Assembly (NCBI GenBank): GCA_041665845.1
Contig: JBAYIC010000002.1
Location: 221-64,220 of the forward strand
DNA from: Patescibacteria group bacterium
GTDB lineage: Bacteria > Patescibacteriota > Patescibacteriia > Patescibacteriales > UBA12465
Direction: 5' to 3'
Length of the DNA stretch: 64,000 nt
Both the position numbers and the translations under genes were made by a program. Positions 22,627 to 57,390 of the stretch are shown here, one piece after another. How positions within the stretch are numbered: the first letter of the stretch is position 1; the number at the start of each line of letters is the position of its first letter. Under the pieces are notes generated by a model. The model was given only the letters and a program-made list of their open reading frames with translations. It did not search any database and was not told the origin of the DNA.

Positions 22627-22642
22627 TTCAGTTGTCCGATTT
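22627..22642 (+). repeat. Dispersed 16-mer copy A (TTCAGTTGTCCGATTT)
   Basis: Exact 16-mer, ending 6 nt before ATG 22649. Confidence 0.95.
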
Positions 22643-22648
22643 AGCAAT

Positions 22649-23047
22649 ATGACCAAAAGCGAGACTGTTAGTAGCCGAACCTCCAAAAAGTTAGTAATTC
22701 GTAGAGCTTGGCTAGAAAAAGAGAATAAATGGGTTTTTAGTGTGATTGATGTTTTGGGAATTATGGCTCAAAGCAAAAGACCCCGTAAATACTGGGCTGA
22801 TTTTAAGGTGAGGTTAATGAGAGATCAAAAAGAGCTATTTTCAAAAATCGGACAACTGAAAATGAAAGCTGATGACGGCAAGATGTATAATACTGATGTG
22901 GCTGATATTAACACAGTTTTTCATTTAATCCGAAGCATTCCCGCCCTAACAATTCAACAGTCTGACCATTGGCTTTATTTAAAAATAATGTTTGCCTTAA
23001 GAAAAGCCACAAAATCACCGCTCGGACATCTCAACCTAGACGATTAG
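22649..23047 (+). CDS. Bro-N / KilA-N-like DNA-binding domain protein (short)
   Basis: KKLVIRRAWLEKENKWVFSVIDVLGIMAQSKRPRKYWADFKVRL..LFSKIGQLKMKADDGKMYNTDVADINTVFHLIRSIP matches my recollection of the Bro-N-type pattern (IRRVW..W.FSVVDV...PR.YW..LK...QLK...DGK...TD). The first ATG after the terminator and -10 box is 22649. Confidence 0.5.
   Translation: MTKSETVSSRTSKKLVIRRAWLEKENKWVFSVIDVLGIMAQSKRPRKYWADFKVRLMRDQKELFSKIGQLKMKADDGKMYNTDVADINTVFHLIRSIPALTIQQSDHWLYLKIMFALRKATKSPLGHLNLDD
22845..22860 (-). repeat. Dispersed 16-mer copy B (reverse complement, AAATCGGACAACTGAA)
   Basis: Exact reverse complement, inside the Bro-N-like ORF (codons KIGQLK). Confidence 0.95.
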
Positions 23048-23097
23048 TCTCAATAATTGATTATTATAAATATATGATTTTAGCAAAAGTTTTAGTC

Positions 23098-23616
23098 ATG
23101 GAAAGGATTAATAAAATAACTCTGGTTAATCTTGCTCAATTTACAGCACTGTTAGCGGTAGCTGTTTTTGCTCCTTTATCTCATAATCAAATAATTACCG
23201 GTTCGCTAGTTAATGCAACTTTATTTATTGCGGCCGCAACAATAGGGCTTGAAGGGGCAATTTTAATTGGTATATTACCAAGCACTTTTGCTCTATTATT
23301 CGGAACTCTACCGATAGCATTAGCGCCGCTTATTCCGTTTATAATATTAAGCAACATCCTTTTGATTTTAGTCGTTTCTTCTTTTAAAAAATATAATAGT
23401 AGTTTAGTATTTTTTAGCGCTGCAGTTCTAAAATTTTTGTTCTTGTTTGCCGTTTCTTCCTGGGCCATTAATTTATTATTTCATGGAAATTTAGTTAAAA
23501 CCGCCTCTATAATGCTAAGTTGGCCACAACTTATAACTGCCTTAATCGGCGGCTTAATTGCCCTTGTTATTATAAAAAAATCTGTTAATATGAGCCTATA
23601 TGCCAACAGAAAATAA
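23098..23616 (+). CDS. Integral membrane protein (possible ECF-transporter S-component-like)
   Basis: About 5-6 TM helices (MERINKITLVNLAQFTALLAVAVFAPL..). The start is uncertain (ATG 23074 or 23098). The tracked start 22969 overlaps the previous gene. Confidence 0.5.
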   Translation: MERINKITLVNLAQFTALLAVAVFAPLSHNQIITGSLVNATLFIAAATIGLEGAILIGILPSTFALLFGTLPIALAPLIPFIILSNILLILVVSSFKKYNSSLVFFSAAVLKFLFLFAVSSWAINLLFHGNLVKTASIMLSWPQLITALIGGLIALVIIKKSVNMSLYANRK

Positions 23617-25285
23617 AGAAAACTTAAAAAAACTTGCGCAAACTCTTTTACCGGAGGCGACTCTTAGTATTGAAGAAATAACGCAAAAATATCCACCGCG
23701 AAATTTACCGGACGGTGCTATGGTTACCAGGATTGCTCCGAGTCCAACTGGCTTTATGCATATTGGTAACCTCTATGCGGCTTTAATACCGGAACGCCTA
23801 GGACATCAGTCTGGGGGTATTTTTTATTTAAGAGTTGAAGATACTGATAGAAAACGAGAGGTCGAAGGTGCGATAGAATTAGTCGTTAATTCTTTAAAAA
23901 CCTTTAATATAAATATTGATGAGGGCCAAGTTAGTTCTACCGAGGAAATCGGAAATTATGGCCCTTATAAACAAAGCGAACGCAAAAATATTTATCAAGC
24001 TTTTGTAAAAAAACTTTTAGAGAGTGGCGATGCCTATCCAGCCTTTGAAACGATTGAAGAATTAGCGAGTGTAACTGAGAATCAAACAAATCAAAAATTA
24101 GCGCCTGGCTATTATGGCGAGTGGGCGACTTGGCGATATAAATCCGTTGATGATGCTTTGGCCGCTTTAAATAAAGGATTAACTCCAGTTATCAGATTAA
24201 AATCAACCGGAGATTTAACTAGAATTATTGCGATTGAAGATTTATTTAAAGGAAAATTACGTTTACCGGAAAATAATCAAGATATTGTAATTCTAAAATC
24301 AGACGGCTTACCAACCTATCATTTCGCTCATGTAATTGATGATCATTTTATGGGGACGACTCATGTTTTACGCGGTGATGAATGGCTAGCGTCTTTGGCT
24401 CTGCATATTCAGTTATTTACTAAAATGGGCTGGGAACATCCGGTTTATGGCCATATTGCCCCCATTCAAAAATTAGATGGTTCGTCACGTCGTAAATTAA
24501 GCAAGCGTCATGACCCCGAGGCTAATGTTGCTTTCTATGAAGAAGCTGGCTATCCGACCGATGTTGTAATAATGTATTTATTAAATTTAGCTAATTCTGG
24601 ATTTGAAAAATGGCTCAATGAACACCCAGATGAAGATTTAGCGAATTATAAATTATCGGTCGCAGAATTAAAAAAAGGCGCTGGTGCACTTTTAGATTTA
24701 CAAAAAATGGATAGTTTTGGTAAAGAGTATATCGGTCGGATGTCGGCTAAAAATATGACGGAGTTGGGACTAGCTTGGGCTAAAAAATATGACGCCGATT
24801 TAGCGTCTCTTATTGAAGCGGATATTAATTATACTATTAAAATTTTAAATATTGAAAGAGAAAATATAAAAGCGCGTAAAGATATTAGTAAATGGTCAGA
24901 CTTAAGAGCACAAATCGGTTTTTTCTTTGATAGTATTTTTAAAGCTCAGGGGATTAATATGGACGAATTAGCGGGAGCGGATTTAAAAAGCATTAAGGAA
25001 GTTGCGACAAGTGTTGCTGATAAATATAATCCGGATGATGATAAAGAAACTTGGCTACAAAAAATGCGTACTCTGAGTGTTGAGTTAGGTTATGCACCTG
25101 ATGCTAAAACTTTTAAAGAATCCCCAGAAAAATATAAAGGAAATTTTGGCGATATGGCAAAAATAATTCGTGTCCTGTTGGTGGGGAAAAATCAATCGCC
25201 TGATTTATATGAGATGATGCAAGCGATGGGAGTAAAGAGAGTTAATAGACGGCTCACTTCTAATATATGGTCAGCAAAAAAATAA
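23600..25285 (+). CDS. gltX: Glutamyl-tRNA synthetase (long form, 561 aa)
   Basis: HIGH-type PSPTGFMHIGN and KMSKS-type KLSKR. Catalytic core motif HVLRGDEW. Confidence 0.9.
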   Translation: MPTENKENLKKLAQTLLPEATLSIEEITQKYPPRNLPDGAMVTRIAPSPTGFMHIGNLYAALIPERLGHQSGGIFYLRVEDTDRKREVEGAIELVVNSLKTFNINIDEGQVSSTEEIGNYGPYKQSERKNIYQAFVKKLLESGDAYPAFETIEELASVTENQTNQKLAPGYYGEWATWRYKSVDDALAALNKGLTPVIRLKSTGDLTRIIAIEDLFKGKLRLPENNQDIVILKSDGLPTYHFAHVIDDHFMGTTHVLRGDEWLASLALHIQLFTKMGWEHPVYGHIAPIQKLDGSSRRKLSKRHDPEANVAFYEEAGYPTDVVIMYLLNLANSGFEKWLNEHPDEDLANYKLSVAELKKGAGALLDLQKMDSFGKEYIGRMSAKNMTELGLAWAKKYDADLASLIEADINYTIKILNIERENIKARKDISKWSDLRAQIGFFFDSIFKAQGINMDELAGADLKSIKEVATSVADKYNPDDDKETWLQKMRTLSVELGYAPDAKTFKESPEKYKGNFGDMAKIIRVLLVGKNQSPDLYEMMQAMGVKRVNRRLTSNIWSAKK

Positions 25286-25890
25286 AGACAACTATTTTAA
25301 TTGCAACCGCGAATCACGGTAAGGCGGAAGAAATAAAAACAATATTTAAAGATTCCGGTTTTGAGCTTAAATTCTTATTTGATTTTCCTGAAGAACTAAA
25401 AAATTTAAAATTAGTTGAGAATGCTAAGAGCTTCGAAGGGAATGCTTTAATTAAAGCAATTATATCTGGCGATGTTTTTAATATGATAACCCTGGCTGAT
25501 GATAGCGGACTGTGTGTCGACGCGCTTGATGGTCGCCCTGGAGTTTATTCGGCGCGTTATTCTGAGACGGGAACAGATCGAGATAATTATTTGAAAGTTT
25601 TAGCAGAGATGAAAAATGTCCCTTTTGGGCAGAGAGATTGCCATTATCATTGTGCGGTTGCTATTTATAATCCAAAAACCAAATTTGTTGATACAGTTTT
25701 AGGAATTTGGGATGGTAAAATTGCTATCGAACCGAGAGGAGATAAAAGTTTTGGTTATGCGCCGATATTTTTAGCTAAGGACTTCAATTACGAGAAAACT
25801 AATGCTGAGTTCGATCCGGAGAATTTAATCGCTATAAACCATCGCGGAAAAGCTTTTAAGCAAGCACTCAAGATTCTAAAAACTATTTAG
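25267..25890 (+). CDS. rdgB: dITP/XTP pyrophosphatase (RdgB/HAM1)
   Basis: IATANHGKAEE, DDSGLCVDALDGRPGVYSARY, NHRGKA. Confidence 0.9.
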   Translation: MVSKKIKTTILIATANHGKAEEIKTIFKDSGFELKFLFDFPEELKNLKLVENAKSFEGNALIKAIISGDVFNMITLADDSGLCVDALDGRPGVYSARYSETGTDRDNYLKVLAEMKNVPFGQRDCHYHCAVAIYNPKTKFVDTVLGIWDGKIAIEPRGDKSFGYAPIFLAKDFNYEKTNAEFDPENLIAINHRGKAFKQALKILKTI

Positions 25891-26290
25891 ATTTTTTTTG
25901 CCTTAATAAATATAACTCCTTAGATTTTCTGGTGATAACTAGGATAGTTAAAACAGCAATATAAGCAGAAACGACAGCGTTGGGCAAGTGATAGGCTACC
26001 CCTAGCGAGAAATCAAGGAGAAATAAAGCGGCGATTAAAATCGACCAGATAATAACAAAAATTTCTCCCGGATGCTCTTCTTGATGCTTATCGTACCAGC
26101 GTTCAAATTCTTTGTTGCTAACATAAATTGCTAGAATGCTGATATAAATAGTTGCCGCCGCGCTGAGAATTTCTTCATAAGCATTAGCGCTAATAAAATC
26201 AATTACAATCATCACAAAAAATAAAAATGACCAGGCGTTGATTAATTTCCGCCAAAATCGAAATTCATTTTTAAGAAAACTTTTTTTCAT
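25883..26290 (-). CDS. Small polytopic membrane protein
   Basis: 135 aa with four hydrophobic helices. No family recognised. Confidence 0.55.
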   Translation of the reverse strand: MKKSFLKNEFRFWRKLINAWSFLFFVMIVIDFISANAYEEILSAAATIYISILAIYVSNKEFERWYDKHQEEHPGEIFVIIWSILIAALFLLDFSLGVAYHLPNAVVSAYIAVLTILVITRKSKELYLLRQKKSK

Positions 26291-26312
26291 ACTTTGTTTT
26301 ATATTTTTTAAA

Positions 26313-27725
26313 TTAATTTTCTAAGGCAACTATTTCGTCGATTTTTACTTCCCGGGTTATGGTTGCTCTAATTTTCTCATCAGCGCTGATGAGTTTTTTT
26401 GTTTTCCATTTTCCCTTTAAAAAAACACCGAGATATATAATCGACATGATAACGCTAGTCGCTGGCAAAGAAATCCAAATTCCATTTAGACCAAGCTGGA
26501 AATATTTTGATAGCAAATAGGCTAGAGGAAGTTGAATTATCCATTGGGAAATAATTGTTAAAATCATTGATTGTTTAGTTGAGCCAGCGGCCTGTAAGGT
26601 GCTGCCAATAATTACTTGGATACCGGTTAAGCCTGATGTAAGAGCAATAAAACGTAAAAAATGAGCACCTTGAATTATAACATTAATATCGTTAGGAACA
26701 AAAAAAGCAATAAAGTACGGAGCAAAGATAAAAATTATTATTCCCAATGCGCTTAAAGTTGTAAAAATAAGTTTTAAACTCAATCTCGCTATTTGATCAG
26801 CTTTTTTAGGATTATTAGCGCCGAGATTTTGTCCGACCAAGGCTGAATTAGCGCCAGCAAAACCAAAACATAACATGAGAATGAGTTGAAAAATATTAGA
26901 ACCAACGCCGTAAGCGGCGATAGCCAGGGTTCCGAAGCTTGTTATTAATCCGGTCATGACCGTTAAAACTAAACTGCGAGCAGATTGTTCTAAAGAAGAT
27001 GGAAGCCCGAGCCAAAGAGCGCGCCGCAAAAATTTAAAATCCGGATTAAAATCAGGCCAATATAATTTTATCCCTTGTCTCCCGGAAAAAAGAATAAATA
27101 GGCCAATAACAGCAGCAATACTTTGAGTAAATAAAGTTGCCCAGGCGGTACCGGCTACTCCGAGTTTAGGAATGAACCAGGTACCAAACATAAACAAAGG
27201 GTCAAGAATAAAATTTAAAATTACTGTTCCGATTATAATAAAAACAGGAAGTTTTGGTTTCCCGATACTGCGCATAATTGATTGGAACATGAAAAAAGAA
27301 AAATTAAAAATCATGCCCAAAAATGAAATACGTAAATAGGCGAGAGTGGTTTCAAATATTTCCGGGCTAACACCTAAGAATTTTAAAATGTTCGCTGAGA
27401 AAAAATAACCCAGAGTGCTAGCAATAGCAGAAACTACAAAAACTAATAATAACGTTTGAGCTGAACTATGGCTAACCATTTTTTTGTCCTTAGCTCCGAA
27501 ATATTGAGCCGTTAAAGCTGCTCCAGCAACAGCAAACCCAATTCCGAGTGAAGTCATGAAAAAAATTACTGGCATACTAACCGCCACTGCCGCTACCGCT
27601 TTTTCTCCTAATCGTCCAACCCAAAAAGCATCAGTTAGCTGATAAGCGGCTTGAAAAAAATTAGCTAGAATTATTGGCCCAGCTAAAGTAAGTAATGGTT
27701 TAATGAGACTTTTACCTTGATCCAT
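26313..27725 (-). CDS. MATE family efflux transporter
   Basis: 470 aa with about 12 TM helices. N-terminal GPIILANFFQAAYQLTDAFWVGRLG is typical of MATE. Confidence 0.85.
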   Translation of the reverse strand: MDQGKSLIKPLLTLAGPIILANFFQAAYQLTDAFWVGRLGEKAVAAVAVSMPVIFFMTSLGIGFAVAGAALTAQYFGAKDKKMVSHSSAQTLLLVFVVSAIASTLGYFFSANILKFLGVSPEIFETTLAYLRISFLGMIFNFSFFMFQSIMRSIGKPKLPVFIIIGTVILNFILDPLFMFGTWFIPKLGVAGTAWATLFTQSIAAVIGLFILFSGRQGIKLYWPDFNPDFKFLRRALWLGLPSSLEQSARSLVLTVMTGLITSFGTLAIAAYGVGSNIFQLILMLCFGFAGANSALVGQNLGANNPKKADQIARLSLKLIFTTLSALGIIIFIFAPYFIAFFVPNDINVIIQGAHFLRFIALTSGLTGIQVIIGSTLQAAGSTKQSMILTIISQWIIQLPLAYLLSKYFQLGLNGIWISLPATSVIMSIIYLGVFLKGKWKTKKLISADEKIRATITREVKIDEIVALEN

Positions 27726-27735
27726 TCAGTTTAGC

Positions 27736-28299
27736 TTATAAGTGTTTTATTATCTCGGCATGAGTTTCGTCTATAGCCATCATCCCGTCTATTTCTACTA
27801 ACTTACCTCTAGAGCGATAATATTCCAGGAGCGGCTGAGATTCGCGCTCAAAAGTTGCAAAGCGATTTTTAATAGCTTCGGGGCTCACATCGTCTTTGCG
27901 ACCGCTCGCTTTTGCCCGGGCTACTATTCTTTTTAATGCTTGTTCTGGTTTAAGACGTAGATAAAACAACTGGCCGATTTCTAAATTCATTTCATCGGCT
28001 AATTTTTCCAACATTTTGGCTTGAGCTAGAATGCGCGGGAAGCCATCGAAAATAAGACCCGATTTAGTTGCTTTATCGCCGATGTTCTTGATTATTTGGA
28101 ACATTAAGTCATCAGGAATCAAAATTCCATTATCAACGTAGGGCTTAATTTCTTGGCCTAAAGCTGATCCAGACTCAATCTCTCCTCTTAATCTTTCCCC
28201 CATTCCAAATTGAAAAAAGCCATATTTTTTCGCCAACATTTGTACTTGAGTTGATTTTCCGCAACCCGGTTGCCCGTAGAGAGTGATTATTTTTTTCAT
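27736..28299 (-). CDS. adk: Adenylate kinase (short lid)
   Basis: P-loop GQPGCGKSTQ, GFPR, RKDD. 187 aa. Confidence 0.9.
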   Translation of the reverse strand: MKKIITLYGQPGCGKSTQVQMLAKKYGFFQFGMGERLRGEIESGSALGQEIKPYVDNGILIPDDLMFQIIKNIGDKATKSGLIFDGFPRILAQAKMLEKLADEMNLEIGQLFYLRLKPEQALKRIVARAKASGRKDDVSPEAIKNRFATFERESQPLLEYYRSRGKLVEIDGMMAIDETHAEIIKHL

Positions 28300-28410
28300 A
28301 GTTTTGATTGATTTTATCGTTTACTATCTATATGATATAATACTATCTGGTCTTAGACAAGATTTTTATTAAAATTAGAGGAAAGTTCCTCTATTAGCAG
28401 GTATTAAGTT

Positions 28411-29271
28411 ATGAAGAATAATTTGTTAATCGGTTTTATCGGCCAGGGTTTTATCGGCAAAAATTATGCAGATGATTTTGAAAACCGCGGCTTTCAAGTT
28501 GTGCGTTATGCGAAAGAAGCACCTTATGAAACAAATAAAGAAAAAATCGCCGAGTGTGATTTAGTTTTTATTGCCGTCCCTACTCCGACAACTCCCAATG
28601 GTTTCAATTTTGATATTTTAAAAGAGGTTATTGGGTTAGTGGGCATAGGAAAATCAGCGATTGTGAAATCAACGATTTTACCGGGAACTTGCGAAGCTCT
28701 ACAAAATTTATATCCCGACCGTTTTGTTTTTCATTCCCCGGAATTTTTAACGGAAAAGACGGCCGCTTACGACGCCGCTCACCCGACCAGGAATATTATT
28801 GGTTATCCCGTTGATAATGAAGAATATCGCGCTAAGGCGCAAGAAATTTTAGATGTTCTACCTGATTCTCCTTTAAACATGATTTGCAAAGCGAAGGAGG
28901 CGGAACTTGTTAAATACGCAAGCAATAGTTTTTTATTTTTGAAAATTATTTATGCTAATATCTTGTATGATTTAGCAGCTAAAGAAGGAAGTGATTGGAA
29001 TAAGATTAGCGCGGGGATGGCCGCTGATCCCAGAATCGGGGCTTCTCATTTACAACCCGCTCATGCTTCGGGAATAGATGGAAAAGTCGGGCGCGGGGCG
29101 GGTGGACATTGTTTTGTAAAAGATTTTGCTGCTTTGTTGGAGTATATTAGTTGCGTGGGCGATGATAAATTAGGCGAACAATTTTTGCGCTTGGCAGAAG
29201 AAAAGAACCTAGAATTGTTAAAAGAGAGTGGTAAGGATGCGGATATAATTAGAGAAGTTTATGGCGTGTAG
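28411..29271 (+). CDS. UDP-glucose/GDP-mannose dehydrogenase family protein, short form lacking the C-terminal domain
   Basis: N-terminal Rossmann IGFIGQGFIGKN, then HSPEFLTEKTA and the catalytic-Cys motif GGHCFVKD. Only ~55 aa follow that motif (286 aa total). Confidence 0.6.
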   Translation: MKNNLLIGFIGQGFIGKNYADDFENRGFQVVRYAKEAPYETNKEKIAECDLVFIAVPTPTTPNGFNFDILKEVIGLVGIGKSAIVKSTILPGTCEALQNLYPDRFVFHSPEFLTEKTAAYDAAHPTRNIIGYPVDNEEYRAKAQEILDVLPDSPLNMICKAKEAELVKYASNSFLFLKIIYANILYDLAAKEGSDWNKISAGMAADPRIGASHLQPAHASGIDGKVGRGAGGHCFVKDFAALLEYISCVGDDKLGEQFLRLAEEKNLELLKESGKDADIIREVYGV

Positions 29272-29355
29272 CGTTAAATCCGCAGACATCGTTGACTTTT
29301 TAAATAGTTTTAAGTATACTTAAAATATATTATAAAATAGCAATAACTTTTAAGT

Positions 29356-30573
29356 ATGAACAAAACATATCAAAATCGTCCTTATTATTTAAACAAGATT
29401 AGGCCTTTTATTGGGTTGGATTTGATTAAGGTTTTAATCGGGCAACGTCGGGTGGGTAAAAGCTATATTTTATTTCAGTTAATGGATGAAATTAAAACTA
29501 AGAATAAAAAAGCAAACATCGTTTATATTAATAAAGAAGAAAATGAGTATGATGCTATTGTTGATTATCGTGATTTAATTACTTATGCCGAACAACGCAT
29601 CAAGCGAGGTGTAAAGAATTATTTATTTATTGATGAAATTCAGGATATCGAAAATTTTGAAAAGGCTTTGCGTCATTTAGCCGCTAAGAAAATTTTTGAT
29701 TTATATTGTACAGGTAGTAACGCTCGTTTGTTGTCTTCGGAAATTGCTACTGGCCTATCGGGGCGTTATATCGAAATCCCTATTCATGCCTTGTCTTATC
29801 AAGAGTTCTTGCAATTTCATAACCTTAAATCTAGCGAAGAAACATTAAATAAATATATACGCTATGGCGGGTTGCCGTTTTTGGCTAACTTAGATTTAAA
29901 AGATGAAATCGTTTATGGTTATTTACAAAGCATTTATAGTACCATTGTTTTAAAAGATGTTGTTGCTCGGTTTAATATAAGAAATATTAATTTTCTTAAT
30001 CGGTTATTAGAGTATGTCGCTGATAATATTGGTTCTTTGGTATCAGCCAAAAGGATAAGTGATTTTTTAAAGTCACAAAAAACTCAAACAACGCCAAATA
30101 AAGTTTTAGATTATTTATCCTATTTATGCTCTAGTTTTATTATTAGCGAGGTTAATCGGGCGGATATTAAGGGTAAAAAGATTTTTGAAATTAATGAAAA
30201 ATATTATTGGGAAGATTTAGGTTTACGAAATTCTTTAGTTGGCTATAAATCAGTTGAAATTGGCCAGATGTTAGAAAATTTAGTTTTTTTACACTTATCA
30301 AGATTAGGATTTAAAGTTAATGTTGGTCAGCTGGAAAATAAAGAAATTGATTTTGTGGCTGAAAAAGAGGGAAAGAAAATTTATGTTCAAGTCGCTTATT
30401 TAATTAGCAATAAATCAGTTAAGGAGAGGGAGTTTGGCAATTTATTAGAGATACCAGATAATTATCAAAAAATTGTTGTTTCTATGGATAAATTAATAGG
30501 CGAAGGCTATAAAGGTGTTAAGCATTATCATATTATGGATTTTTTGCAGGATGATACAATATTATTTGTTTAA
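29356..30573 (+). CDS. AAA-type ATPase with C-terminal DUF4143-like nuclease-fold domain
   Basis: Walker A GQRRVGKS and Walker B LFIDEIQ. C-terminal EIDFVAEKEGKKIYVQV. Confidence 0.75.
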   Translation: MNKTYQNRPYYLNKIRPFIGLDLIKVLIGQRRVGKSYILFQLMDEIKTKNKKANIVYINKEENEYDAIVDYRDLITYAEQRIKRGVKNYLFIDEIQDIENFEKALRHLAAKKIFDLYCTGSNARLLSSEIATGLSGRYIEIPIHALSYQEFLQFHNLKSSEETLNKYIRYGGLPFLANLDLKDEIVYGYLQSIYSTIVLKDVVARFNIRNINFLNRLLEYVADNIGSLVSAKRISDFLKSQKTQTTPNKVLDYLSYLCSSFIISEVNRADIKGKKIFEINEKYYWEDLGLRNSLVGYKSVEIGQMLENLVFLHLSRLGFKVNVGQLENKEIDFVAEKEGKKIYVQVAYLISNKSVKEREFGNLLEIPDNYQKIVVSMDKLIGEGYKGVKHYHIMDFLQDDTILFV

Positions 30574-30584
30574 TTTGACTTTAA

Positions 30585-42229: not shown

Positions 42230-42245
42230 TTCAGTTGTCCGATTT
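42230..42245 (+). repeat. Dispersed 16-mer copy C
   Basis: Exact 16-mer, intergenic, starting 16 nt beyond the start codon (42211-42213) of minus-strand GT2 gene 41446-42213. Confidence 0.95.
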
Positions 42246-49112: not shown

Positions 49113-49129
49113 ATTATTTCATAGGAACA

Positions 49130-49160: not shown

Positions 49161-49165
49161 ATAAA

Positions 49166-49195
49166 AAAGAAGAAAATTTAGTTTTTTGCGTATTA
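49166..49195 (+). promoter_or_regulatory. ECF-type promoter candidate P3 (AAAGAAGAAA-N10-TTGCGTATTA)
   Basis: One of three copies of a bipartite motif. CGTATT at 49189-49194 lies 45 nt before ATG 49240. Confidence 0.6.
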
Positions 49196-49239
49196 TTAGG
49201 TATGAACAGTTTTGTTCAAAATTTAAATAATCAAAAATT

Positions 49240-49887
49240 ATGAAAAAAACCTTAATTTTCTCGGCTTTTTTGCTATTTTCTCTAGTTTTATTAACTGGTT
49301 GTGGTAATGGTGAAGCTAAGAATAATCAAACAACTGGAGATAAAACTGGGACTCCAACCGCTATCGAGGCAAATAATATTGGGCGCCCCGGTCGTAACAA
49401 TCAACCCGATTTTGGCCAACCGGAAAGAGCGGCTGATGTTCGAGGGATTGTAAAATCTATAGTTGGTAATGAGGCCAATATTTTAAAAATTGAAAGAGGA
49501 AATGGACGGGCTAGTTCGACTGAAGCAATGGCTGGTGGCTCAGAAAATAAGGCAGCCGTTTCTTTAACTCGTACACCCGGAGTACCAGCTGGAGGTCCCG
49601 GTGGCGGAATGGGAGGTGGAATGGGCGGTCCCGGTGGCGGAATGGGAGGCACTCAAGATGCTACTAGTCGCGCGGCTATGCTCGCTGCGCTGAAAGAAAT
49701 GAGTACCGGAGAAGAGAAAGTTATTATTCCGGTTGGGATAAAAATGTTGAAATCAAGTACTGATGGGACTAAACGAGAAATGGTAGAAGCTAATTTGAGT
49801 GATATTACTAATGATAAAATGATAACTATTTGGTTAAATCAATCAGTGACCGATAAAAAAGTTGCAGAATTTGTGCTTATTAATTAA
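49240..49887 (+). CDS. Lipoprotein with Gly/Met-rich low-complexity segment
   Basis: Lipobox LLTGC, plus GGPGGGMGGGMGGPGGGMGG. Confidence 0.65.
   Translation: MKKTLIFSAFLLFSLVLLTGCGNGEAKNNQTTGDKTGTPTAIEANNIGRPGRNNQPDFGQPERAADVRGIVKSIVGNEANILKIERGNGRASSTEAMAGGSENKAAVSLTRTPGVPAGGPGGGMGGGMGGPGGGMGGTQDATSRAAMLAALKEMSTGEEKVIIPVGIKMLKSSTDGTKREMVEANLSDITNDKMITIWLNQSVTDKKVAEFVLIN
49594..49649 (+). repeat. 33-nt-offset tandem duplication (23-nt identical cores)
   Basis: GGTCCCGGTGGCGGAATGGGAGG occurs at 49594-49616 and again at 49627-49649. Confidence 0.85.
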
Positions 49888-49895
49888 TTAAATCT

Positions 49896-51761
49896 ATGGC
49901 GCAGTCAATTTTAGAAGAAAGCAAAAAGGCAAAAGCTGGTTTCTGGGGTTTTTTCCGAACAAAGAAATTTTTAATTATTGTTGTTATAATATTGGCCGCC
50001 GCCGGAGTGAGTTATTATTTTTATAATAAGAGTACTGCTACTAAAATAATTATCGCCCAGCCTAAAAACTATACCGTTGTTAGGGAAGATTTAAAGATTG
50101 CCGTTTCCGCAACCGGTAAAGTAGTTGCTAAAGATGGAGTCGAATTATCATTTCCAGTTAGCGGTAATTTAGAAGTTAATAATGTTTATGTTAAAGAAGG
50201 CGATAAAATAAAAAAAGGCGATAAGATTGCCTCTGTTAAAACTGAAACTTTAGAATTTGAAATGCGTAATGCTTATTCTAGTTATCAATCCGCTTTAGCT
50301 AATTTTAATACTAAGAAACTCCCGGCAACAGGTAGCGAAATTGCTAAAGCAAAATCAACTATTGATCAAGCGCAAGTTTCTCTTGATCAAGCAAAAATAA
50401 GTCTTGAACAAACAAAAATAAATTCCGCCCAAAATATTTCTAACGCTGAAAGCGCCCTGCAAACAGCTAATGATAATTTACAATTAAATAAAGATACTAG
50501 CGATAGTGAGCTAGTACGCAGCGCTTATTCTGATTTAGTGGGAACAATAAAATCGGTGAATATTTCTTTGCAAAAAATATTGCGTGATTCTGATAGTATC
50601 CTTGGTATAGATGAGCAATCGATTAACGATGAATTTGAATTAGGGCTTGGGGCTAAAAATAGTTCTTCGCTAACGGAAGCTAGGAGCAGTTATATAAGTG
50701 CTAGAGCAGCTAGAGAAAAATTAGATAATAAAATAGTTACCCTAGATAGCAATAATACTTTTATTGTTGATTCAGTTGCGGCTGATGCTAAGACCACTTT
50801 ATCTTCTTTTCAGAATCATCTTTATAATATGCAAGTGATGTTAGATGCTAGCGTTATTTTCGTTGGCCTTTCTCAATCTAAACTTGATAGTTTTAAATCT
50901 AGTATCAGTACTAATCGCTCTGCAGTGAATTCCTCTATTTCCAGTCTTGATAATTCTATCCAAGCGATAACGGATGCTAAAAATAATCTGAAAAAATATC
51001 AGACGGCTTATGATAAAGCGGTTAATGATTTAGCAATCATTAAGAGTCAATCCCAACAAAATATTAACAATTCAGAAATTTCTGTAAAATCAAGGGAAAT
51101 ATCCCTAACTCAAACAAAAAATGATTATAATGATTTAATCGCACCGGTTAAAGAATCTGATTTAGCTTCAGCCCGCGCCCAGCTTACTTCGGCGGCAATT
51201 AGCGTTGATAAAGCTAAGTATAATTATAACCAAGCAACTTTAATCTCTCCGATTGATGGCGTTGTGGCTCTCTTGAATTATAAAAAAGGCGATATTATTT
51301 TGAGTGATAGTGCAAAAACTATGGCCTCAATAATTAATAATGAAACTTTGTATATTGAAGCAAATATTGAAGAGGCGGATATTAGTAAAATTAAAGTAGG
51401 CGATAAGGCGAGCGTAACTTTTGACGCGGTAGATGGCGTTAATTTAACTGGAGAAGTTAGTTTTATTTCTCTGACTTCAGAAACAAGCTCAAATGGAATA
51501 GTAACTTATTTAGTTAGAGTTTTATTAGCTAATACCGGGCCTAATCAAATTAGAGAAGGAATGACGGCGAGTATTGATTTTATTACCGCCGAAGCAAAAG
51601 ACGTTTTAGCTGTTCCGGTTGCGGCTGTGAGAAATATCGCTGGTAATCCTTCAGTAGAAATGGCTGATGGTAATTTGGCTACGGTTGTAACTGGATTCAC
51701 TGATGGTAAAAAAGCAGAAATTATTAGTGGGTTAAAAGAGGGCGATAAGATTCTTTATTAA
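49896..51761 (+). CDS. HlyD/MacA-family membrane-fusion (periplasmic adaptor) protein with very long helical hairpin
   Basis: TM anchor. Lipoyl-like halves (VKEGDKIKKGDKIA ... LISPIDGVV). Between them lie ~330 aa rich in Ala/Ser/Gln/Leu/Lys that I read as helical. 621 aa. Confidence 0.8.
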   Translation: MAQSILEESKKAKAGFWGFFRTKKFLIIVVIILAAAGVSYYFYNKSTATKIIIAQPKNYTVVREDLKIAVSATGKVVAKDGVELSFPVSGNLEVNNVYVKEGDKIKKGDKIASVKTETLEFEMRNAYSSYQSALANFNTKKLPATGSEIAKAKSTIDQAQVSLDQAKISLEQTKINSAQNISNAESALQTANDNLQLNKDTSDSELVRSAYSDLVGTIKSVNISLQKILRDSDSILGIDEQSINDEFELGLGAKNSSSLTEARSSYISARAAREKLDNKIVTLDSNNTFIVDSVAADAKTTLSSFQNHLYNMQVMLDASVIFVGLSQSKLDSFKSSISTNRSAVNSSISSLDNSIQAITDAKNNLKKYQTAYDKAVNDLAIIKSQSQQNINNSEISVKSREISLTQTKNDYNDLIAPVKESDLASARAQLTSAAISVDKAKYNYNQATLISPIDGVVALLNYKKGDIILSDSAKTMASIINNETLYIEANIEEADISKIKVGDKASVTFDAVDGVNLTGEVSFISLTSETSSNGIVTYLVRVLLANTGPNQIREGMTASIDFITAEAKDVLAVPVAAVRNIAGNPSVEMADGNLATVVTGFTDGKKAEIISGLKEGDKILY

Positions 51762-51762
51762 T

Positions 51763-52485
51763 ATGCATAATATTAATATAAATAATTTAGCGATAAAAAT
51801 GGAGAACGCTTATAAGTCGTATTATCTTTCTAATAGCGAAGAAATCCCAGTTTTGAAAGGAATAAATCTCGAAATTAAAAAGGGAGAATTTGTAGCGATT
51901 ATGGGCGAGTCCGGCGGCGGTAAAACTACTCTTTTAAATATTATCGGTTGTTTGCACCCCCTAAGTTCTGGAAAATATTTTTTAGATGGTGAAAACATTG
52001 GCGAAGTCAGAGATGATTTTACGTTGGCATATATTAGAAACAAGAAAATGGGTTTTGTTTTCCAACAATTTAATCTATTTTCCCGTTTCTCTGCTTTGAA
52101 GAATGTAATTTTGCCGGCGATTTATGCCGGTACTGCGGCTCCAGAAAGGGAAGAAAGGGCCAAAGAACTTCTTAAATCGGTCGGGATGGAAACTCGATTA
52201 AACCATAAACCGACCGAGCTCTCAGGTGGTCAGCAGCAGCGTGTTGCTATTTGTCGCTCTTTGATTAATAATCCAGAAATCATTTTAGCTGATGAACCGA
52301 CCGGAGCACTTGATTCCAAGTCTGGTATTGAGGTAATGGAAATTTTTACCAAATTTAAGAACCAAGGTAAAACCGTTATTATGGTTACTCATACCGCCGA
52401 AGTTGCTAAATATGCCGATAGAATTATTTATTTGCGCGATGGGCAGGTTATAGATAATAATTATAAACTCAAAGGAAATTATTAA
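51763..52485 (+). CDS. ABC transporter ATP-binding protein (MacB/LolD type)
   Basis: Walker A GESGGGKTT, signature LSGGQQQRVAICR, Walker B ILADEPTGALD. Confidence 0.95.
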   Translation: MHNININNLAIKMENAYKSYYLSNSEEIPVLKGINLEIKKGEFVAIMGESGGGKTTLLNIIGCLHPLSSGKYFLDGENIGEVRDDFTLAYIRNKKMGFVFQQFNLFSRFSALKNVILPAIYAGTAAPEREERAKELLKSVGMETRLNHKPTELSGGQQQRVAICRSLINNPEIILADEPTGALDSKSGIEVMEIFTKFKNQGKTVIMVTHTAEVAKYADRIIYLRDGQVIDNNYKLKGNY

Positions 52486-52495
52486 AATTAATATT

Positions 52496-53692
52496 ATGAA
52501 TCTGGAAATAGTAAAGATGGCCTTTGAATCATTACTAGCCAAGAAGACTAGAACTTTTTTGTCGATGCTCGGAATTATTATTGGTGTAGCAACAGTGATT
52601 GCTGTTTTTGCGGTTGGTAAAGGTGCTCAAGATTCGGTTAATTCTCAATTTCGTAATTTAAGTGCTAATTCCATTATTGTTATGCCTAATCGCGGTCGCG
52701 GTTTTACTTCTAGCTCTAAATTAAAAACTGCTGATGCCGCCTTACTTCTTAAGGCCGATCATATTGCTTCGGCGGCCGGAGCCGTACAAGGCAACGCTAG
52801 CGTTTCCCATGGCTCAGTTGATAAAAGCTATAGCGTAGTCGGTGCAGATCAAAATTTTCTAGCGATATCTAGTCTCGTAGTTCAGTCAGGTAGAGGAATT
52901 GAAGAGGCCGATGTTTCTAGTAAGGGGATGGTAGCAGTAATCGGTAGTACGGTCGCAAATGATTTATTTGTAAATGATGAAAACCCAATTGGAAATTCAA
53001 TTAATGTTGGAAATCGCAAGGTTGAAGTAGTTGGTGTTTTAAAAAAACTTGGTTCAAGAGTCGGAATGATTTCAGTCGATGAAGCAGTTATTATTCCTAG
53101 CAGTACGGCTGAAAAAAGTATTCTGGGCGAAAGAGGACAAGTTATTATTACTACTACAGTAGATAATGTTGATAATACTTCACTAGCTACAACCAGCATC
53201 TCGGCTATTTTAAGAACGGAACATAAATTAAAAGTTAGCCAAGAGGATGATTTTAGAATTATGGATGCCGGTAGTATGGTTTCAGCCGCTCAAGAATCAG
53301 CTAAAACTTTAACTACTTTATTAACCGCGATCGCCGCTATTACTTTGCTTGTTTCAGGAATCGGAATCATGAATGTAATGTTTGTAACGGTCGCCGAAAG
53401 AACAAAAGAAATTGGTATCGCGAAAGCGATTGGGGGGAAGCGCTCCGATATTCTAGGACAGTTTTTATTAGAATCTGTTATTTTATCAATGGTAGGAGGC
53501 ATAATCGGCATGATTATCGGCCAAGGAGCCATACCGATTATTACCTATTTTAATCTCATTTCGATGACTAGTTCAGCAACCGGACCAATTCTTGGATTTA
53601 CTTTTTCAGTTTTAGTCGGTGTATTTTTCGGTTTTTACCCGGCCTATAAGGCGAGTCGTTTAGATCCGGTTGATGCTTTAAGGAGTGAATAA
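52496..53692 (+). CDS. ABC transporter permease (MacB/FtsX type)
   Basis: N-terminal TM, large extracytoplasmic domain and C-terminal FtsX-like 3-TM bundle (ERTKEIGIAKAIGGKR). Confidence 0.9.
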   Translation: MNLEIVKMAFESLLAKKTRTFLSMLGIIIGVATVIAVFAVGKGAQDSVNSQFRNLSANSIIVMPNRGRGFTSSSKLKTADAALLLKADHIASAAGAVQGNASVSHGSVDKSYSVVGADQNFLAISSLVVQSGRGIEEADVSSKGMVAVIGSTVANDLFVNDENPIGNSINVGNRKVEVVGVLKKLGSRVGMISVDEAVIIPSSTAEKSILGERGQVIITTTVDNVDNTSLATTSISAILRTEHKLKVSQEDDFRIMDAGSMVSAAQESAKTLTTLLTAIAAITLLVSGIGIMNVMFVTVAERTKEIGIAKAIGGKRSDILGQFLLESVILSMVGGIIGMIIGQGAIPIITYFNLISMTSSATGPILGFTFSVLVGVFFGFYPAYKASRLDPVDALRSE

Positions 53693-53786
53693 TTTGGTTA
53701 TTAGACTAATACCCCAGTTAATATTGAAATAATATCGTTTTTGTATTAAGATGACTGCATTAGCTTAATAACTAATTAAGAAATAT

Positions 53787-55181
53787 ATGGGTTATACTGA
53801 TATGAAATTATTACACCGAGAAACTGCTAAATATCTAGGTCAAGAGATTAAAATTGGCTCCTGGGTTAGAACAGTTCGCAGTTCTAAGGATTTTGGTTTT
53901 ATTGAAGTAAATGATGGGACTTTTTTTAAAGGCTTACAAGTTGTTTTTGATAATAATTTAGAGAATTTTAGTGAAATAGAAAAATTAACGATTGGTTCTG
54001 CTTTGGAAATAAGTGGTGTTTTGGCGGAATCCCCCGCTGCTGGTCAAGCCTTTGAACTTAAAGCAAAAAAAATAGAAATCATTAATTTGGCTGAGGCTGA
54101 TTATCCTTTACAAAAAAAGAGCCATAGCTTTGAATTTTTAAGAACTATTGCTCATCTGCGTGGACGTAGTAATACTTTTTCCGCAGTTTTTCGTCTGCGT
54201 TCCGCTTTAAGTTTCGCAATCCATAAATTTTTTCAAGAGGAGGGCTTTTCTTATATCCATACGCCAATAATTTCCGGAAGTGATGCTGAAGGCGCGGGAG
54301 AAATGTTTAATATCACAACGCTTGATTTAAAGAAAGGCGCCCCTAAATTACCATCTGGCGAAGTCGATTATGCTCAAGATTTTTTTGGTAAGAAAGTTGG
54401 TTTAACCGTTAGTGGTCAACTTGAAGCGGAGGCATTAGTCATGGGACTAAATCGAGTTTATACTTTTGGGCCAACCTTTAGAGCCGAAAACTCTAATACT
54501 ACTCGTCATGCTTGTGAATTTTGGATGATGGAGCCGGAAATGGCTTTTGCTGATTTAAATGATGATATGAATTTGGCTGAAAAAATGATTAAATATTTAA
54601 TTGCTTATATTTTGAAGGAACTCCCGGAAGAAATGGAGTTTTTTAATAAGTTTATCGATACGGGATTAATGGAAAAATTAAATAATATTTTAAATTCTGA
54701 TTTTGTGCGCCTTCCTTATACCGAAGCAATCGATTTATTAATTAAGAGTGGCGAGAAGTTTGCTTATCCAGTTTCTTGGGGTATAGATTTGCAAACTGAG
54801 CATGAAAGATATATTACCGAAAAGATTTTTGGCAAACCGGTTTTCTTAACTGATTATCCTAAAGATATTAAGGCTTTTTACATGCGTCAAAATGATGACG
54901 GGAAAACCGTTGCGGCAATGGATTTGCTTGTTCCGGGAATTGGAGAAATTATCGGTGGTAGCCAAAGGGAAGAACGTCTTGACTTTCTGGAGAATCGCAT
55001 TAAGGAGCTAAACATGAAAATAGAAGATTATTCTTGGTATCTAGATACCAGAAAATACGGATCGATGAAACATGCCGGGTTTGGGCTTGGTTTTGAAAGA
55101 GCGATTATGTATTTTTCTGGCATGGCCAATATTAGAGATGTTATTCCTTTTCCAAGAACACCAAAAAACGCTGAGTTCTAG
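53787..55181 (+). CDS. asnS: Asparaginyl-tRNA synthetase
   Basis: OB-fold N-terminus. Class IIb motifs [21 protein letters not shown] and [12 protein letters not shown]. An alternative start lies at 53802. Confidence 0.9.
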
Positions 55182-55219
55182 AAGAGGGAGAGTATAACAT
55201 TAAAAAGAGCTAAATTTGA

Positions 55220-55235
55220 AAATCGGACAACTGAA
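55220..55235 (-). repeat. Dispersed 16-mer copy D (reverse complement)
   Basis: Exact reverse complement, intergenic after asnS. The flank AAAAAGAGCTA also matches the Bro-N ORF region 22826-22836. Confidence 0.95.
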
Positions 55236-55301
55236 AACCTGATTAGGCTTATATTAAATAAATTATAAATTTATATTGTTGAACTTTTAAAATGATTAGT
55301 C

Positions 55302-55619
55302 ATGAGTGAAAAAACGTATTGGTTTGTAGAGCCAGAAGATGCCCATACAAACGGGATTATAGCCAGAAGTTTATTGGAACTTTCGCAGCTGGATGAAAAT
55401 GTATCTTTAACCGATGTTGATGGTCATAGCCATTCGGTTTTCCGGGTAGAAAATTACGCTTTTGTTAATCGCTTGTACAAAGATCAGACAAAATTTCTCT
55501 TGAAGTTTAAAGTCTTTTCTCAACAAGGGAAAAACGCTAAGCTTCGGCTTTGGACTCTGGGCATTAGAAAGCCAACACTTAAGTTGAAGGCTAAGTCTAA
55601 ATCGAAAGTAAAGATTTAA
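55302..55619 (+). CDS. Hypothetical protein with Lys-rich tail
   Basis: 105 aa with no TM. C-terminus KPTLKLKAKSKSKVKI. A terminator follows. Confidence 0.5.
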   Translation: MSEKTYWFVEPEDAHTNGIIARSLLELSQLDENVSLTDVDGHSHSVFRVENYAFVNRLYKDQTKFLLKFKVFSQQGKNAKLRLWTLGIRKPTLKLKAKSKSKVKI

Positions 55620-55632
55620 TAATTATGGTAAC

Positions 55633-55660
55633 AAGGAGGCTAATCAGTCTCCTTTTGTTT
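55633..55660 (+). terminator. Rho-independent terminator
   Basis: AAGGAGGCT pairs with AGTCTCCTT (9 bp, one G-U). The loop is 4 nt, followed by a T-run. Confidence 0.7.
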
Positions 55661-55702
55661 TTGCATTTTGTTTTTACCCGCTTTTTCTGCTAGAATTTAA
55701 AT

Positions 55703-56470
55703 ATGATGTTAAATAATCTTAAAAAGAAACGTCTAGCGTTTCTAGTGGTATATATTCCTCTCGCTTGTTTGTTGGTTTATTTTTGGCGACCAATCTATTT
55801 AATTTCAATCATTGTTGTTTTGGTTCCACCAGCTATTTTAAATTTTCTTTGGCTTAAAAAATCACATTTTAAAATATTATTTTTTGCGCTTGTTACAACT
55901 ATATTATTTGCGCCGCCGGTTGAGCTTGCTGCTCGCCTAGCTAATGCTTGGGACGTCCAATCAATTTTACCGCGATTATTCGGAATTGCGCCGCTTGAAA
56001 ATATTTTATTTGCTTTTTTAAATTTCTTCTGGGTTCTTTGTTTTTATGAATATTTTATTGATAAAGATTTAAGTTATAAAATTTCTAAACGTTTACGTTT
56101 GATAATTTTAGGTTATTGTCTTTTAGCACTTATCATCTTTTCTTTATATTTTATTAATCCGGGATTAGTAACAATTAATTATTCACTCCTAGCTTTGATT
56201 ATTTTAATTGTTCCAGGAATAATAATTTTTTATCTTAACCCTAAAATACTCAAAAAAACTTGGCTTCCAACTTTATTTTTTGCCTATGTTTTTTTCTTGT
56301 ATGAAGTCATTTCTTTAATTATCGGTTCTTGGTGGTGGCCGGGCGAGTATCTCTGGCCGATAAATTTAGCCGGGAAAGTTTTTCCGCTCGATGATGTGAT
56401 TATTTGGTATTTGCTTTCAACACCGGTATTAATTGGCGGTTATGAATTTTTTGTTGATGATAATAAATAA
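55703..56470 (+). CDS. Polytopic membrane protein, possibly lycopene-cyclase-domain family
   Basis: About 7 TM helices. Two PLE/PLD-type motifs (APLENILFAF; FPLDDVIIWYL) resemble the duplicated CrtYc/Yd motif. Confidence 0.45.
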   Translation: MMLNNLKKKRLAFLVVYIPLACLLVYFWRPIYLISIIVVLVPPAILNFLWLKKSHFKILFFALVTTILFAPPVELAARLANAWDVQSILPRLFGIAPLENILFAFLNFFWVLCFYEYFIDKDLSYKISKRLRLIILGYCLLALIIFSLYFINPGLVTINYSLLALIILIVPGIIIFYLNPKILKKTWLPTLFFAYVFFLYEVISLIIGSWWWPGEYLWPINLAGKVFPLDDVIIWYLLSTPVLIGGYEFFVDDNK

Positions 56471-56482
56471 AAATATAAAAAT

Positions 56483-57361
56483 ATGGAAGCTAGAGTTATA
56501 AAAATTATTACGCCAAAAAATATCGCTTTGCACGGTTTTATTTTTAGCTCTAAGCGCGTAAAGACGATTTATATTTTTCTTCACGGCTTGAGTGGAAATC
56601 TTTTTTCGCGTATTGCTTTAGCAGAGAAAATGGTAGCTGATGGGGCAACGGTCATGGTTTTTAATAATCGCGGATTTGGCTTGATTAATCAATTTAGAAA
56701 AATTAACCCGCGCCAACCAGATGAATATGAATCACTCGTAATTGGCCAAGCACATGAAGTTTTTGAAGATTGCGTTGATGATATAGATGGCGCGATAAAT
56801 ACCGCATTGAATCTTGGCTATAAGAAAGTTATTTTAGTCGGGCATTCAACTGGCTGTAATAAAGCGGCTTATTATCTTTCCCAGAAAAATCCTACTTGTA
56901 TTACCGGTGCTATTCTTTTAGCACCGATGAGCGATTATGCTGATGGTATAAAATTTACTGATCCTAAAATATTTAACCGAGCCCTGAAAGAAGCAAAAAG
57001 ATTAATTGCGGCTGGAAAACCGGGAGCACTTTTACCAGCCGACTATTGGAGCCGACCAATCGATGCTCAAAGATTTATCAGTTTATTTACACCGGAAAGT
57101 AAAGAAGAAATGTTTAGTTATGCGGTTCCTGATAAAAAACCGATAATTTTACAAAAAATTAAAAAACCATTTTTAGTGGTTCTTGCGGGAGAGGATCAAT
57201 TCACTGATAGGCCAATGAAAGATGTTTTCGCTTGGTTTAAGAAAGCTTTGATAGGAAAACAGGCCGGACCTTTAATGATTAAAAAATCGCTTCACAGCTT
57301 TACGGGCTACGAAGCAAAAGTAAAAAATATTATTTTTGATTTTGTAAAAAAATTGAAATAG
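56483..57361 (+). CDS. Alpha/beta hydrolase
   Basis: Nucleophile elbow GHSTG and oxyanion region LHGLSGN. Confidence 0.75.
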   Translation: MEARVIKIITPKNIALHGFIFSSKRVKTIYIFLHGLSGNLFSRIALAEKMVADGATVMVFNNRGFGLINQFRKINPRQPDEYESLVIGQAHEVFEDCVDDIDGAINTALNLGYKKVILVGHSTGCNKAAYYLSQKNPTCITGAILLAPMSDYADGIKFTDPKIFNRALKEAKRLIAAGKPGALLPADYWSRPIDAQRFISLFTPESKEEMFSYAVPDKKPIILQKIKKPFLVVLAGEDQFTDRPMKDVFAWFKKALIGKQAGPLMIKKSLHSFTGYEAKVKNIIFDFVKKLK

Positions 57362-57374
57362 AGAAGCATCTCAA

Positions 57375-57390
57375 TTCAGTTGTCCGATTT
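57375..57390 (+). repeat. Dispersed 16-mer copy E
   Basis: Exact 16-mer between the convergent hydrolase and greA genes. Confidence 0.95.

Follow-up and report, generated by a model that had tools for sequence, protein, structure and literature searches.

An exact 16-bp repeat occurs five times in a 64-kb stretch of a Patescibacteria genome (contig JBAYIC010000002.1; hereafter the window, meaning the whole 64,000 nucleotides analysed). We find that this repeat is the loop and 3′ arm of a palindrome located within the coding sequence of a family of stand-alone Bro-N-domain genes. Across the family the two arms are held complementary by repeated compensatory changes, which include paired amino-acid changes. 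Four of the window copies (A, C, D and E) derive from such genes as short, decayed remnants in which one arm has been preserved; copy E is conserved in a relative, and copy D was gained in this lineage. The motif is thereby explained in its origin and only partly in its function. Our preferred reading, which is tentative (probability roughly 0.4) and built on sequence comparison, is that the half-palindrome has been kept in this genome by selection as a sequence-specific element, probably read by a Bro-N protein.

Five exact copies of the repeat

The 16-mer, TTCAGTTGTCCGATTT (reverse complement AAATCGGACAACTGAA), was counted on both strands. A preliminary description of this DNA had given five exact copies together with their flanking genes; all coordinates, strands and contexts proved correct, and the window holds no other exact copy. 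It had also put the expected number of chance occurrences far below one, and none of 100 dinucleotide-preserving shuffles of the window contained the exact 16-mer. Allowing up to three mismatches added a single window site, at 15921, which has two mismatches and lies inside ligA. The G+C content of the window is 30–37%, its genes include rpsD, ligA, gatCA, gltX, tyrS, asnS, greA and a glycosyltransferase cluster, and the nearest named relatives are Falkowbacteria. The copies and the features around the first two are as follows.

22571..22586, + strand: promoter-like extended −10 box TGCTATACT, upstream of copy A; a resemblance to the consensus only
22627..22642, + strand: copy A, half-palindrome (3′ arm plus loop, read on the − strand)
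22649..23047, + strand: truncated, diverged Bro-N-only gene of 132 amino acids, supported by a family hidden Markov model (HMM), alignment and an AlphaFold2 (AF2) model
22845..22860, − strand: copy B, 3′ arm plus loop in the canonical in-gene position, encoding K-I-G-Q-L-K
42230..42245, + strand: copy C, in the 55-nt spacer from the stop of a sugar-transferase gene to the start of a family 2 glycosyltransferase (GT2) gene, both on the − strand
55220..55235, − strand: copy D, 3′ arm plus loop, with the decayed 5′ arm gagctaaatttg
57375..57390, + strand: copy E, in the 91-nt spacer between convergent hydrolase and greA genes

Copy A lies 6 nt 5′ of the ATG (22649) of the Bro-N-only gene. Because it is downstream of the promoter-like box (TGnTATACT) and upstream of the ATG, it is probably in the 5′ untranslated region (UTR). 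Copies A and B form perfect 16-bp inverted repeats 202 bp apart. Copy C is 16 nt upstream of the GT2 ATG (gene start 42213, − strand), and copy D is 38 nt past the asnS stop. With regard to a possible operator role, A and B are on the Bro-N-only gene, C and D upstream of gene starts and E between convergent genes.

The repeat is half of a palindrome within a Bro-N gene family

When the exact 16-mer was scanned in phage contigs and in one genome per species (GTDB, where per-genome counts are lower bounds), about 10 of the 37 matches in phage contigs fell in one protein family of about 285 amino acids. At least some 70 of the 118 matches listed for GTDB genomes fell within that same family. In family genes AAATCGGACAACTGAA encodes (K)IGQLK and is directly preceded by (G/C)AGTTGTCCGA(A/T/C)A. 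The 16-mer search left this 5′ arm unconstrained, yet the arm matches the inverted complement of the 16-mer itself. AAATCGGACAACTGAA is the loop plus 3′ arm of a 27–31-bp palindrome, (C/G)AGTTGTCCGA-AAAAA-TCGGACAACTG, and the 16-mer itself reads AAA-TCGGACAACTG-AA in palindrome terms. The palindrome (AGTTGTCCGA-AAAAA-TCGGACAACT, with 10–12 bp per arm and an A-rich loop of 3–7 nt) occupies codons ~65–75 (ELSE-K-IGQLK) of a protein with the consensus ...RPRKYWSDLKxKLKxEGSELSEKIGQLKMxSSDGKxYxTDVADTE..RLIQSIPSPKAEPFKxWLA...

Bacterial hosts of the family include Bacteroidota, Acidobacteriota, Patescibacteria, Omnitrophota, Planctomycetota, Pseudomonadota, Nitrospirota and Chloroflexota, among others, and archaeal hosts include Pace-, Woese- and Nanoarchaeota and Methanosarcinales. 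A canonical member (L046) matches Pfam Bro-N (PF02498) over residues 14–109 (E 2e-11), PHROG 15286 (E 4e-117; PHROG gives no function) and the PADLOC defence candidate PDC-S13 (E 1.5e-134), and RefSeq plasmid records name family members ‘Bro-N domain-containing protein’. Clustering of the genes next to about 70 family genes revealed no conserved partner, and no recombinase, REP-associated tyrosine transposase (RAYT; REP, repetitive extragenic palindrome), integrase or transposase-like gene recurs beside them. In single cases a family gene adjoins hsdM (Type I), AbiE or Fic genes.

Family members elsewhere are often truncated or pseudogenised, and family homology often starts or stops within a few codons of the palindrome (L079, L096, L118, L126, L131, L083 and L115). 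Extra copies just upstream of the family-gene start codon occur in three other loci (L007, L044 and L072) in addition to the window. Isolated palindromes also occur. In a Berkelbacteria locus (L064, 4150–4275) three different family-type palindromes, with GTACGA, GTCGACA and GTCCGGA cores, stand in tandem, with a full Bro-N family gene on one side and an AbiEi-like gene on the other. Elsewhere a truncated 130-amino-acid family gene with an intact palindrome lies between mcrB and mcrC (L242, 7537–11965). In plasmids of Chondrinema litorale and Candidatus Chlorohelix (L236 and L238) the Bro gene is directly downstream of parA-parB, and at least 11 Chondrinema plasmids carry one BRO family gene each.

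The palindrome arms covary at the nucleotide level

We threaded 107 distinct family genes onto a family HMM built in this analysis, and nearly all of them had complementary arms at HMM positions 65–75. Genes retrieved by protein similarity alone carried many arm variants and kept complementarity. Examples are the pairs AACTGTCCGA/TCGGACAGTT; AGTTGTACGA/TCGTACAACT, in which a change from S to Y is paired with one from G to V; AACTGCACGA/TCGTGCAGTT, pairing H with V; AACCTTACGA/TCGTAAGGTT, pairing P with R; CAAACCGTTACA/TGTAACGGTTTG from Haliscomenobacter; and AGTTATCTACA/TGTAGACAACT from Chondrinema, whose protein has a different C-terminal domain. Among 32 distinct hairpins, 88.5% of stem cells were paired, as against 18–38% when the partner columns were slid, and double-sided changes were found in 10 of the 12 stem pairs. 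None of 500 shuffles reached the observed covariation values. On a neighbour-joining tree of the rest of the protein, each variable pair changed state at least 10–25 times.

Codon entropy at conserved residues equalled the gene-wide value except at HMM positions 66–74, where S67 was TCC in 63 of 63 genes, I70 was ATC in 82 of 82 and G71 was GGA in 63 of 63. Because synonymous sites outside the palindrome are saturated, the shared 16-mer does not stem from recent whole-gene transfer. We read each arm base as doubly constrained, by its own codon and by the codon of the base with which it pairs. Such a double constraint would freeze the commonest allele, and thus place the same 16-mer in dozens of phyla. 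As far as we could find, a conserved dual-coding palindrome of this kind in a large gene family has not been described previously; our literature search returned no account of a conserved Bro-N intragenic palindrome and nothing relevant on PDC-S13.

One interpretation of these data is that the palindrome acts as RNA, its 10–12-bp mRNA hairpin tuning translation or stability in canonical genes. In the window, copy A (UUCAGUUGUCCGAUUU) would then pair with B in cis, and with C, D and the greA side of E in trans in an antisense-like manner. The canonical hairpin does fold well (z = −3.4), copy A is downstream of the promoter-like box, a predicted fold of the mRNA pairs A with B over 15 bp, and along the local direction of transcription the sequence of B, C, D and (from greA) E is AAAAUCGGACAACUGAA. 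Among arm mismatches, however, G.U was not in excess over A.C on either strand, so a structure formed in RNA only is not favoured. Searches against Rfam found nothing but a tRNA in the window and no match at the palindrome in five canonical loci (E ≤ 1). Ribosomes would unwind a hairpin within a coding sequence, and bacterial small RNAs seldom pair with perfect 16-nt identity at every target. Together with the mixed orientation of the copies on an unrelated contig (L230, below), these points make an RNA mode of action quite unlikely.

Two translational roles were also considered. Programmed frameshifting was rejected because the upstream A AAA AAG-like run and the A-run of the loop are not conserved, and an internal start codon after the hairpin because the next codon is often TTA or CTA.

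Window copies retain one arm and have lost the other

All five window copies are the same half of the palindrome, an A-run plus TCGGACAACTGAA, and a search allowing up to three mismatches found no 5′-arm halves in the window. The 3′ arm is perfect in all five. None of them forms a local hairpin (z = −0.2 to −1.0, compared with −3.4 for the canonical element), and what remains of the 5′ arm, on the loop side, has decayed to roughly half the G+C, namely 3–4 of 11 positions in the window copies compared with 6–7 in canonical genes. In copy C the decayed arm reads cattattgga, and in copy B GAGCTATTTTCA stands in place of GAGTTGTCCGAA; among the 107 genes, the copy B gene alone has kept the 3′ arm intact while losing the 5′ arm. 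Point mutations in situ, rather than breakage at the loop, account for the decay of the 5′ arms. With a 3′ arm only and no local fold, the window copies fall outside the definition of the palindrome and are derivatives rather than members.

In the pairs A/C, B/D and E/L230 the similarity continues for 20–40 nt past the core, with 76–83% identity around perfect cores. The loop-side flanks of A (22643–22659) and C match at 13 of 17 nt (agcaatATGACCAAAAG and tccaataATGACAAAAG, respectively) and share the pattern TTT-n6/7-ATGAC(C/A)AAAAG. The left flank of E is about 83% identical to that of the first L230 copy. Flank sharing between B and D and between B and E had been noted in the preliminary description. 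Both cases are real, the first as AAAAAGAGCTA within a 38-nt similar segment and the second as TTTTC-N-AAAATCGG. An 11-mer search of the copy flanks against the window otherwise returned AT-rich noise, the exceptions being the B/D match and the promoter-like box. Two segments are relevant to the history of copy D.

22827..22864, + strand: segment of the B region, 38 nt, shared with D (AAAAAGAGCTA-n6-AAAATCGGACAACTGAAAA)
55182..55252, + strand: D-carrying segment of 71 nt that begins directly after the asnS stop and is absent from two relatives (L218 and L241)

The core inference of the preliminary description, that conservation acts at the DNA level and independently of coding context, holds. 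What it had missed is that the 16-mer does not stand alone as a motif and is the arm and loop of a deeply conserved, covarying palindrome in Bro-N genes.

Conservation and gain of copies among relatives

In a relative with 94% AsnS identity (L218), fourfold-degenerate sites differ from the window at 40–50%. The orthologous hydrolase/greA spacer of this relative carries TTCAGTTGTCCGATTTT, in which copy E is identical at 17 of 17 positions while the flanks barely align. By our own estimate, neutral survival of this match has a chance of 0.55^17, or about 4e-5. The 71-nt segment that carries copy D is missing both from this relative and from one with 88% AsnS identity (L241), and was therefore gained in this lineage as an insertion. 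Three loci from relatives with 82–84% AsnS identity (64 kb in total) contain no copy, even at three mismatches, and a genome with another truncated family gene has the in-gene palindrome only. Enrichment of the half-site is accordingly specific to the lineage of the window.

A metagenome scan for half-sites without a 5′ arm yielded 12 loci, which are mostly chance matches; L230/L228 and L225 are informative. L230, a contig like those of the candidate phyla radiation (CPR) and unrelated to the window, has two exact direct copies 39 nt apart in a thrS/comF spacer (3220–3330; also in L228) and an inverted copy with two mismatches, with no family gene within 11.6 kb. Like the window copies, those of L230 combine a perfect 3′ arm with a decayed 5′ arm (1–3 G+C positions), and their orientations are mixed relative to transcription.

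These comparisons bear on the possibility that several Bro-N family genes were acquired and decayed, with the 16-mer surviving by chance or recency. All copies are recognizable as fragments of family genes, and the family is frequently truncated or pseudogenised elsewhere, which would fit neutral relics. Perfect 16–17-mers nevertheless sit within flanks that are 76–83% identical (A/C, B/D and E/L230) or cannot be aligned at all (E and L218). The expected survival is about 1–3% per pair, apart from the far smaller value for E given above, and the G+C-rich 3′ arm has resisted the AT bias that eroded the 5′ arm. Neutral survival is therefore improbable. The preliminary description had named ‘fragments of one recently duplicated gene family’ as an outcome that would speak against its view; fragments they are, yet not neutral recent duplicates, given that E is preserved at 17 of 17 positions across about 45% neutral divergence.

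It had also suggested a signal resembling a DNA uptake sequence, which in this Patescibacteria lineage would serve natural transformation. The copies do occur in both orientations and are mostly intergenic, and the related cluster of L230 lies beside comF. Their density is about 1 per 13 kb, whereas known uptake sequences occur at roughly 1 per kb. The absence of any copy from the 64 kb of the 82–84% relatives and the clear origin of the motif in a gene-internal palindrome further speak against this idea, which we consider highly improbable. With five copies in 64 kb the repeat was not assigned to the DNA uptake sequence class.

The palindrome could also act as DNA through its secondary structure, a hairpin or cruciform at which strands break, templates are switched or site-specific recombination takes place. 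On this view the copies in the window would be scars of such events or their solo ends; copying would regenerate them, and selection for binding would play no part in keeping them. The inverted repeats A and B might even let the 5′ module be inverted or exchanged. The many independent switches within the covariation, and the lack of a G.U bias on both strands, point to pairing in DNA. The breaks in family homology near the palindrome, the isolated palindromes and the tandem array of three different ones fit this explanation, as does copy D, where an insertion of 71 nt duplicates 38 nt of the B region. Arms of 10–12 bp around a centre of 5–7 nt also match the geometry of tyrosine-recombinase core sites. 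Other observations run against it. The survey of some 70 family genes brought up no recurrent recombinase, RAYT or integrase, and a Pfam scan of 20 window open reading frames (ORFs), mostly those around the copies, found none of the three. The 5′ arms were lost by point mutation in place, the surviving halves are always 3′-arm halves and never 5′-arm halves, copy E is conserved across large neutral divergence, and no target-site duplications were seen. We regard this explanation as unlikely, if far from negligible.

A Bro-N-only protein as the putative reader

The window ORF at 22649..23047 scores 120 bits against the family HMM and is colinear with positions 5–112, although it has no Pfam match at E ≤ 0.01. 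It retains all family-invariant residues up to W109, and its AF2 model has a predicted local distance difference test (pLDDT) score of about 90 over residues 20–95. The protein is identical to the NCBI entry ‘hypothetical protein WCT50_01245’ from Patescibacteria. Its HMM score and invariant residues place it in the family, as the Pfam, PHROG and PDC-S13 profiles do for the canonical member. Lacking the C-terminal ~170 amino acids, it is a Bro-N-only protein. A terminator scan near copies A and B returned the rpsD terminator only.

The Bro-N domain has been described as DNA-interactive (PMC8096241, PMC10111431). It is the most likely candidate for the reader of the half-site because the domain-only gene is intact, two of the sites lie on that gene and the domain is regarded as interacting with DNA. 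For canonical full-length proteins the palindrome would be a self-encoded operator of two half-sites, which would move with the gene and permit autoregulation at any new location. The whole palindrome would be a fitting site for a dimer of the full-length protein, and half of it for the truncated one; the Bro-N-only protein, without its C-terminal ~170 amino acids, would need one half-site only. The half-sites would then be those on its own gene, A in the 5′ UTR and B in the coding sequence, and a few beside other genes. Of the three explanations offered in the preliminary description, two come close to what the evidence supports: that the repeat is an operator bound by a protein, and that it is the core left conserved when copies of a Bro-N-associated element decayed.

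Several findings weigh against selection for binding by a Bro-N protein. Most family genes have no extra upstream copy, and copy E, between convergent genes, is not in a promoter position. The pairs A/C and B/D are not independent events, and the evidence from the source genome covers 64 kb only. Measured against the rest of the protein, pair states have switched many times; selection for base pairing, or template-switch ‘palindrome correction’, explains this more readily than recurrent changes in protein specificity would. Family homology frequently breaks off only a few codons from the palindrome, and the three side-by-side palindromes of L064 look like accumulated remnants rather than operators for one protein. 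Foldseek found no significant match to the window protein model in the PDB that could support a mode of binding, and a PDB sequence search likewise returned nothing.

Comparison with known systems

The canonical palindrome carriers match Bro-N genes (PF02498), the ‘Bro network’ of DNA-interactive proteins of phages and defence islands, and PDC-S13; they occur singly, sometimes inside McrBC or beside Type I, AbiE or Fic genes. They differ from described Bro-N genes in the conserved intragenic palindrome, for which no precedent was found in the literature, and the window gene differs further in being truncated to 132 amino acids and missed by Pfam.

Cis sites that lie within the gene of their own reader include parS in spo0J/parB, the pT181 origin in repC and lac O2 in lacZ. 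In these systems, as in the Bro-N family, a palindromic or hairpin site lies inside a coding sequence and is subject to protein and nucleic-acid constraints together. In two plasmids, moreover, the Bro gene directly follows parA-parB. In contrast to these systems, binding of the Bro-N protein to its own palindrome is putative and the window copies are half-sites; and no HUH or Rep motifs were noted among the invariant residues.

REP sequences and bacterial interspersed mosaic elements (BIMEs) are imperfect palindromes with a 5′ GTAG, many intergenic copies and a RAYT gene, and Rickettsia palindromic elements (RPEs) and Neisseria Correia elements are palindromic repeats that can lie in frame. 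The repeats described here resemble them as short palindromic units that are intergenic, occur in both orientations, sometimes stand in tandem (L064) and are sometimes compatible with a reading frame. They differ from REP/BIME in having no GTAG head, no RAYT or transposase neighbour, low copy number and one fixed ancestral position in a protein family. The REP/BIME (REPtron) class was rejected for the window copies, which have no palindrome or GTAG, and for the family, which has no recurrent transposase-like neighbour.

Integration sites in tRNA and tmRNA genes have symmetric stems, a 7-nt loop and integrase core sites. They resemble the palindrome as nucleotide-conserved stem-loops of similar arm and loop size in a widely shared gene, with gene fragments that begin or end nearby. 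No adjacent integrase and no direct-repeat island boundaries were found in the present case. Tyrosine-recombinase att or core sites have inverted arms around a 6–8-bp overlap; an assignment to them was rejected for the same lack of a recurrent integrase by family genes and of island boundaries, in spite of the fitting geometry. Invertons have inverted repeats that flank 100–800 bp, together with an invertase; the repeats A and B are 202 bp apart, and the 20 window ORFs scanned with Pfam, mostly those around the copies, include no recombinase. Integron attC was rejected because GTTGTCC does not fit GTTRRRY and no integrase is adjacent, and an intrinsic terminator because neither strand has a T run after the canonical hairpin. 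No Rfam family was assigned to the palindrome.

Other features of the window

The near-match at 15921 lies in a stretch of ligA (15861–15940; gene 14189–16369, + strand) that encodes the helix-hairpin-helix (HhH) linker and holds three motif-like units, aatcaattgtccgaaaaa and then aatcagttatccgat twice, encoding NQLSE... This linker is hypervariable in the clade, and close relatives already have QLS(G/D)FLKI, one of them carrying CTCAGTTGTCCGGTTT; the site is therefore probably native or old. Perhaps a palindrome arm was captured here in frame long ago, or the resemblance may be coincidental.

The extended −10-like box upstream of copy A, TGCTATACTATAAATA, recurs as an identical 16-mer: it is found at 22571–22586 and at 59221–59236. 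The second occurrence lies upstream of an ORF (59311–59892), and sigma-70 domains are present in the counterpart of this ORF in a relative. Downstream of rpsD, at 22480–22523 and some 105 nt before copy A, is a strong hairpin resembling a bidirectional terminator. An ORF of 255 amino acids (55703–56470) with no Pfam match lies between copies D and E. It is absent from the 94% relative, where a small ORF is followed directly by the hydrolase gene. In relatives of the window genome (L234, 4858–12456, and L235) an inovirus-like integrated element with genes for a large serine recombinase, REP_ORF2-G2P and Zot is found directly after gatA/dsbA; at this position the window has dsbA, tRNA-Ser and a 457-amino-acid ORF.

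Implications

A wider picture, which we offer as a doubtful possibility drawn from the comparisons above, is that the gene constitutes a self-contained, horizontally portable and autoregulated cassette with its own putative site within the coding sequence of its own domain. The site would be maintained by codon–codon coevolution across Bacteria, Archaea and phages, and a Patescibacteria lineage would have domesticated the domain-only form together with half-sites as a small regulon.

For annotation, exact 16-mers common to several phyla need not imply recent transfer, and the 16-mer itself is a signature for spotting decayed Bro-N remnants. If our account is correct, the isolated repeat of a CPR genome would be the visible fragment of a much larger pattern, in which a nucleic-acid element within the coding sequence of a widespread Bro-N and defence-candidate family dictates the amino-acid pairs S/G, Y/V, H/V and P/R. 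It would represent a clean natural example of dual coding, the same bases constraining a protein and a DNA or RNA structure, and the palindrome would provide an experimental handle on the function of the family.

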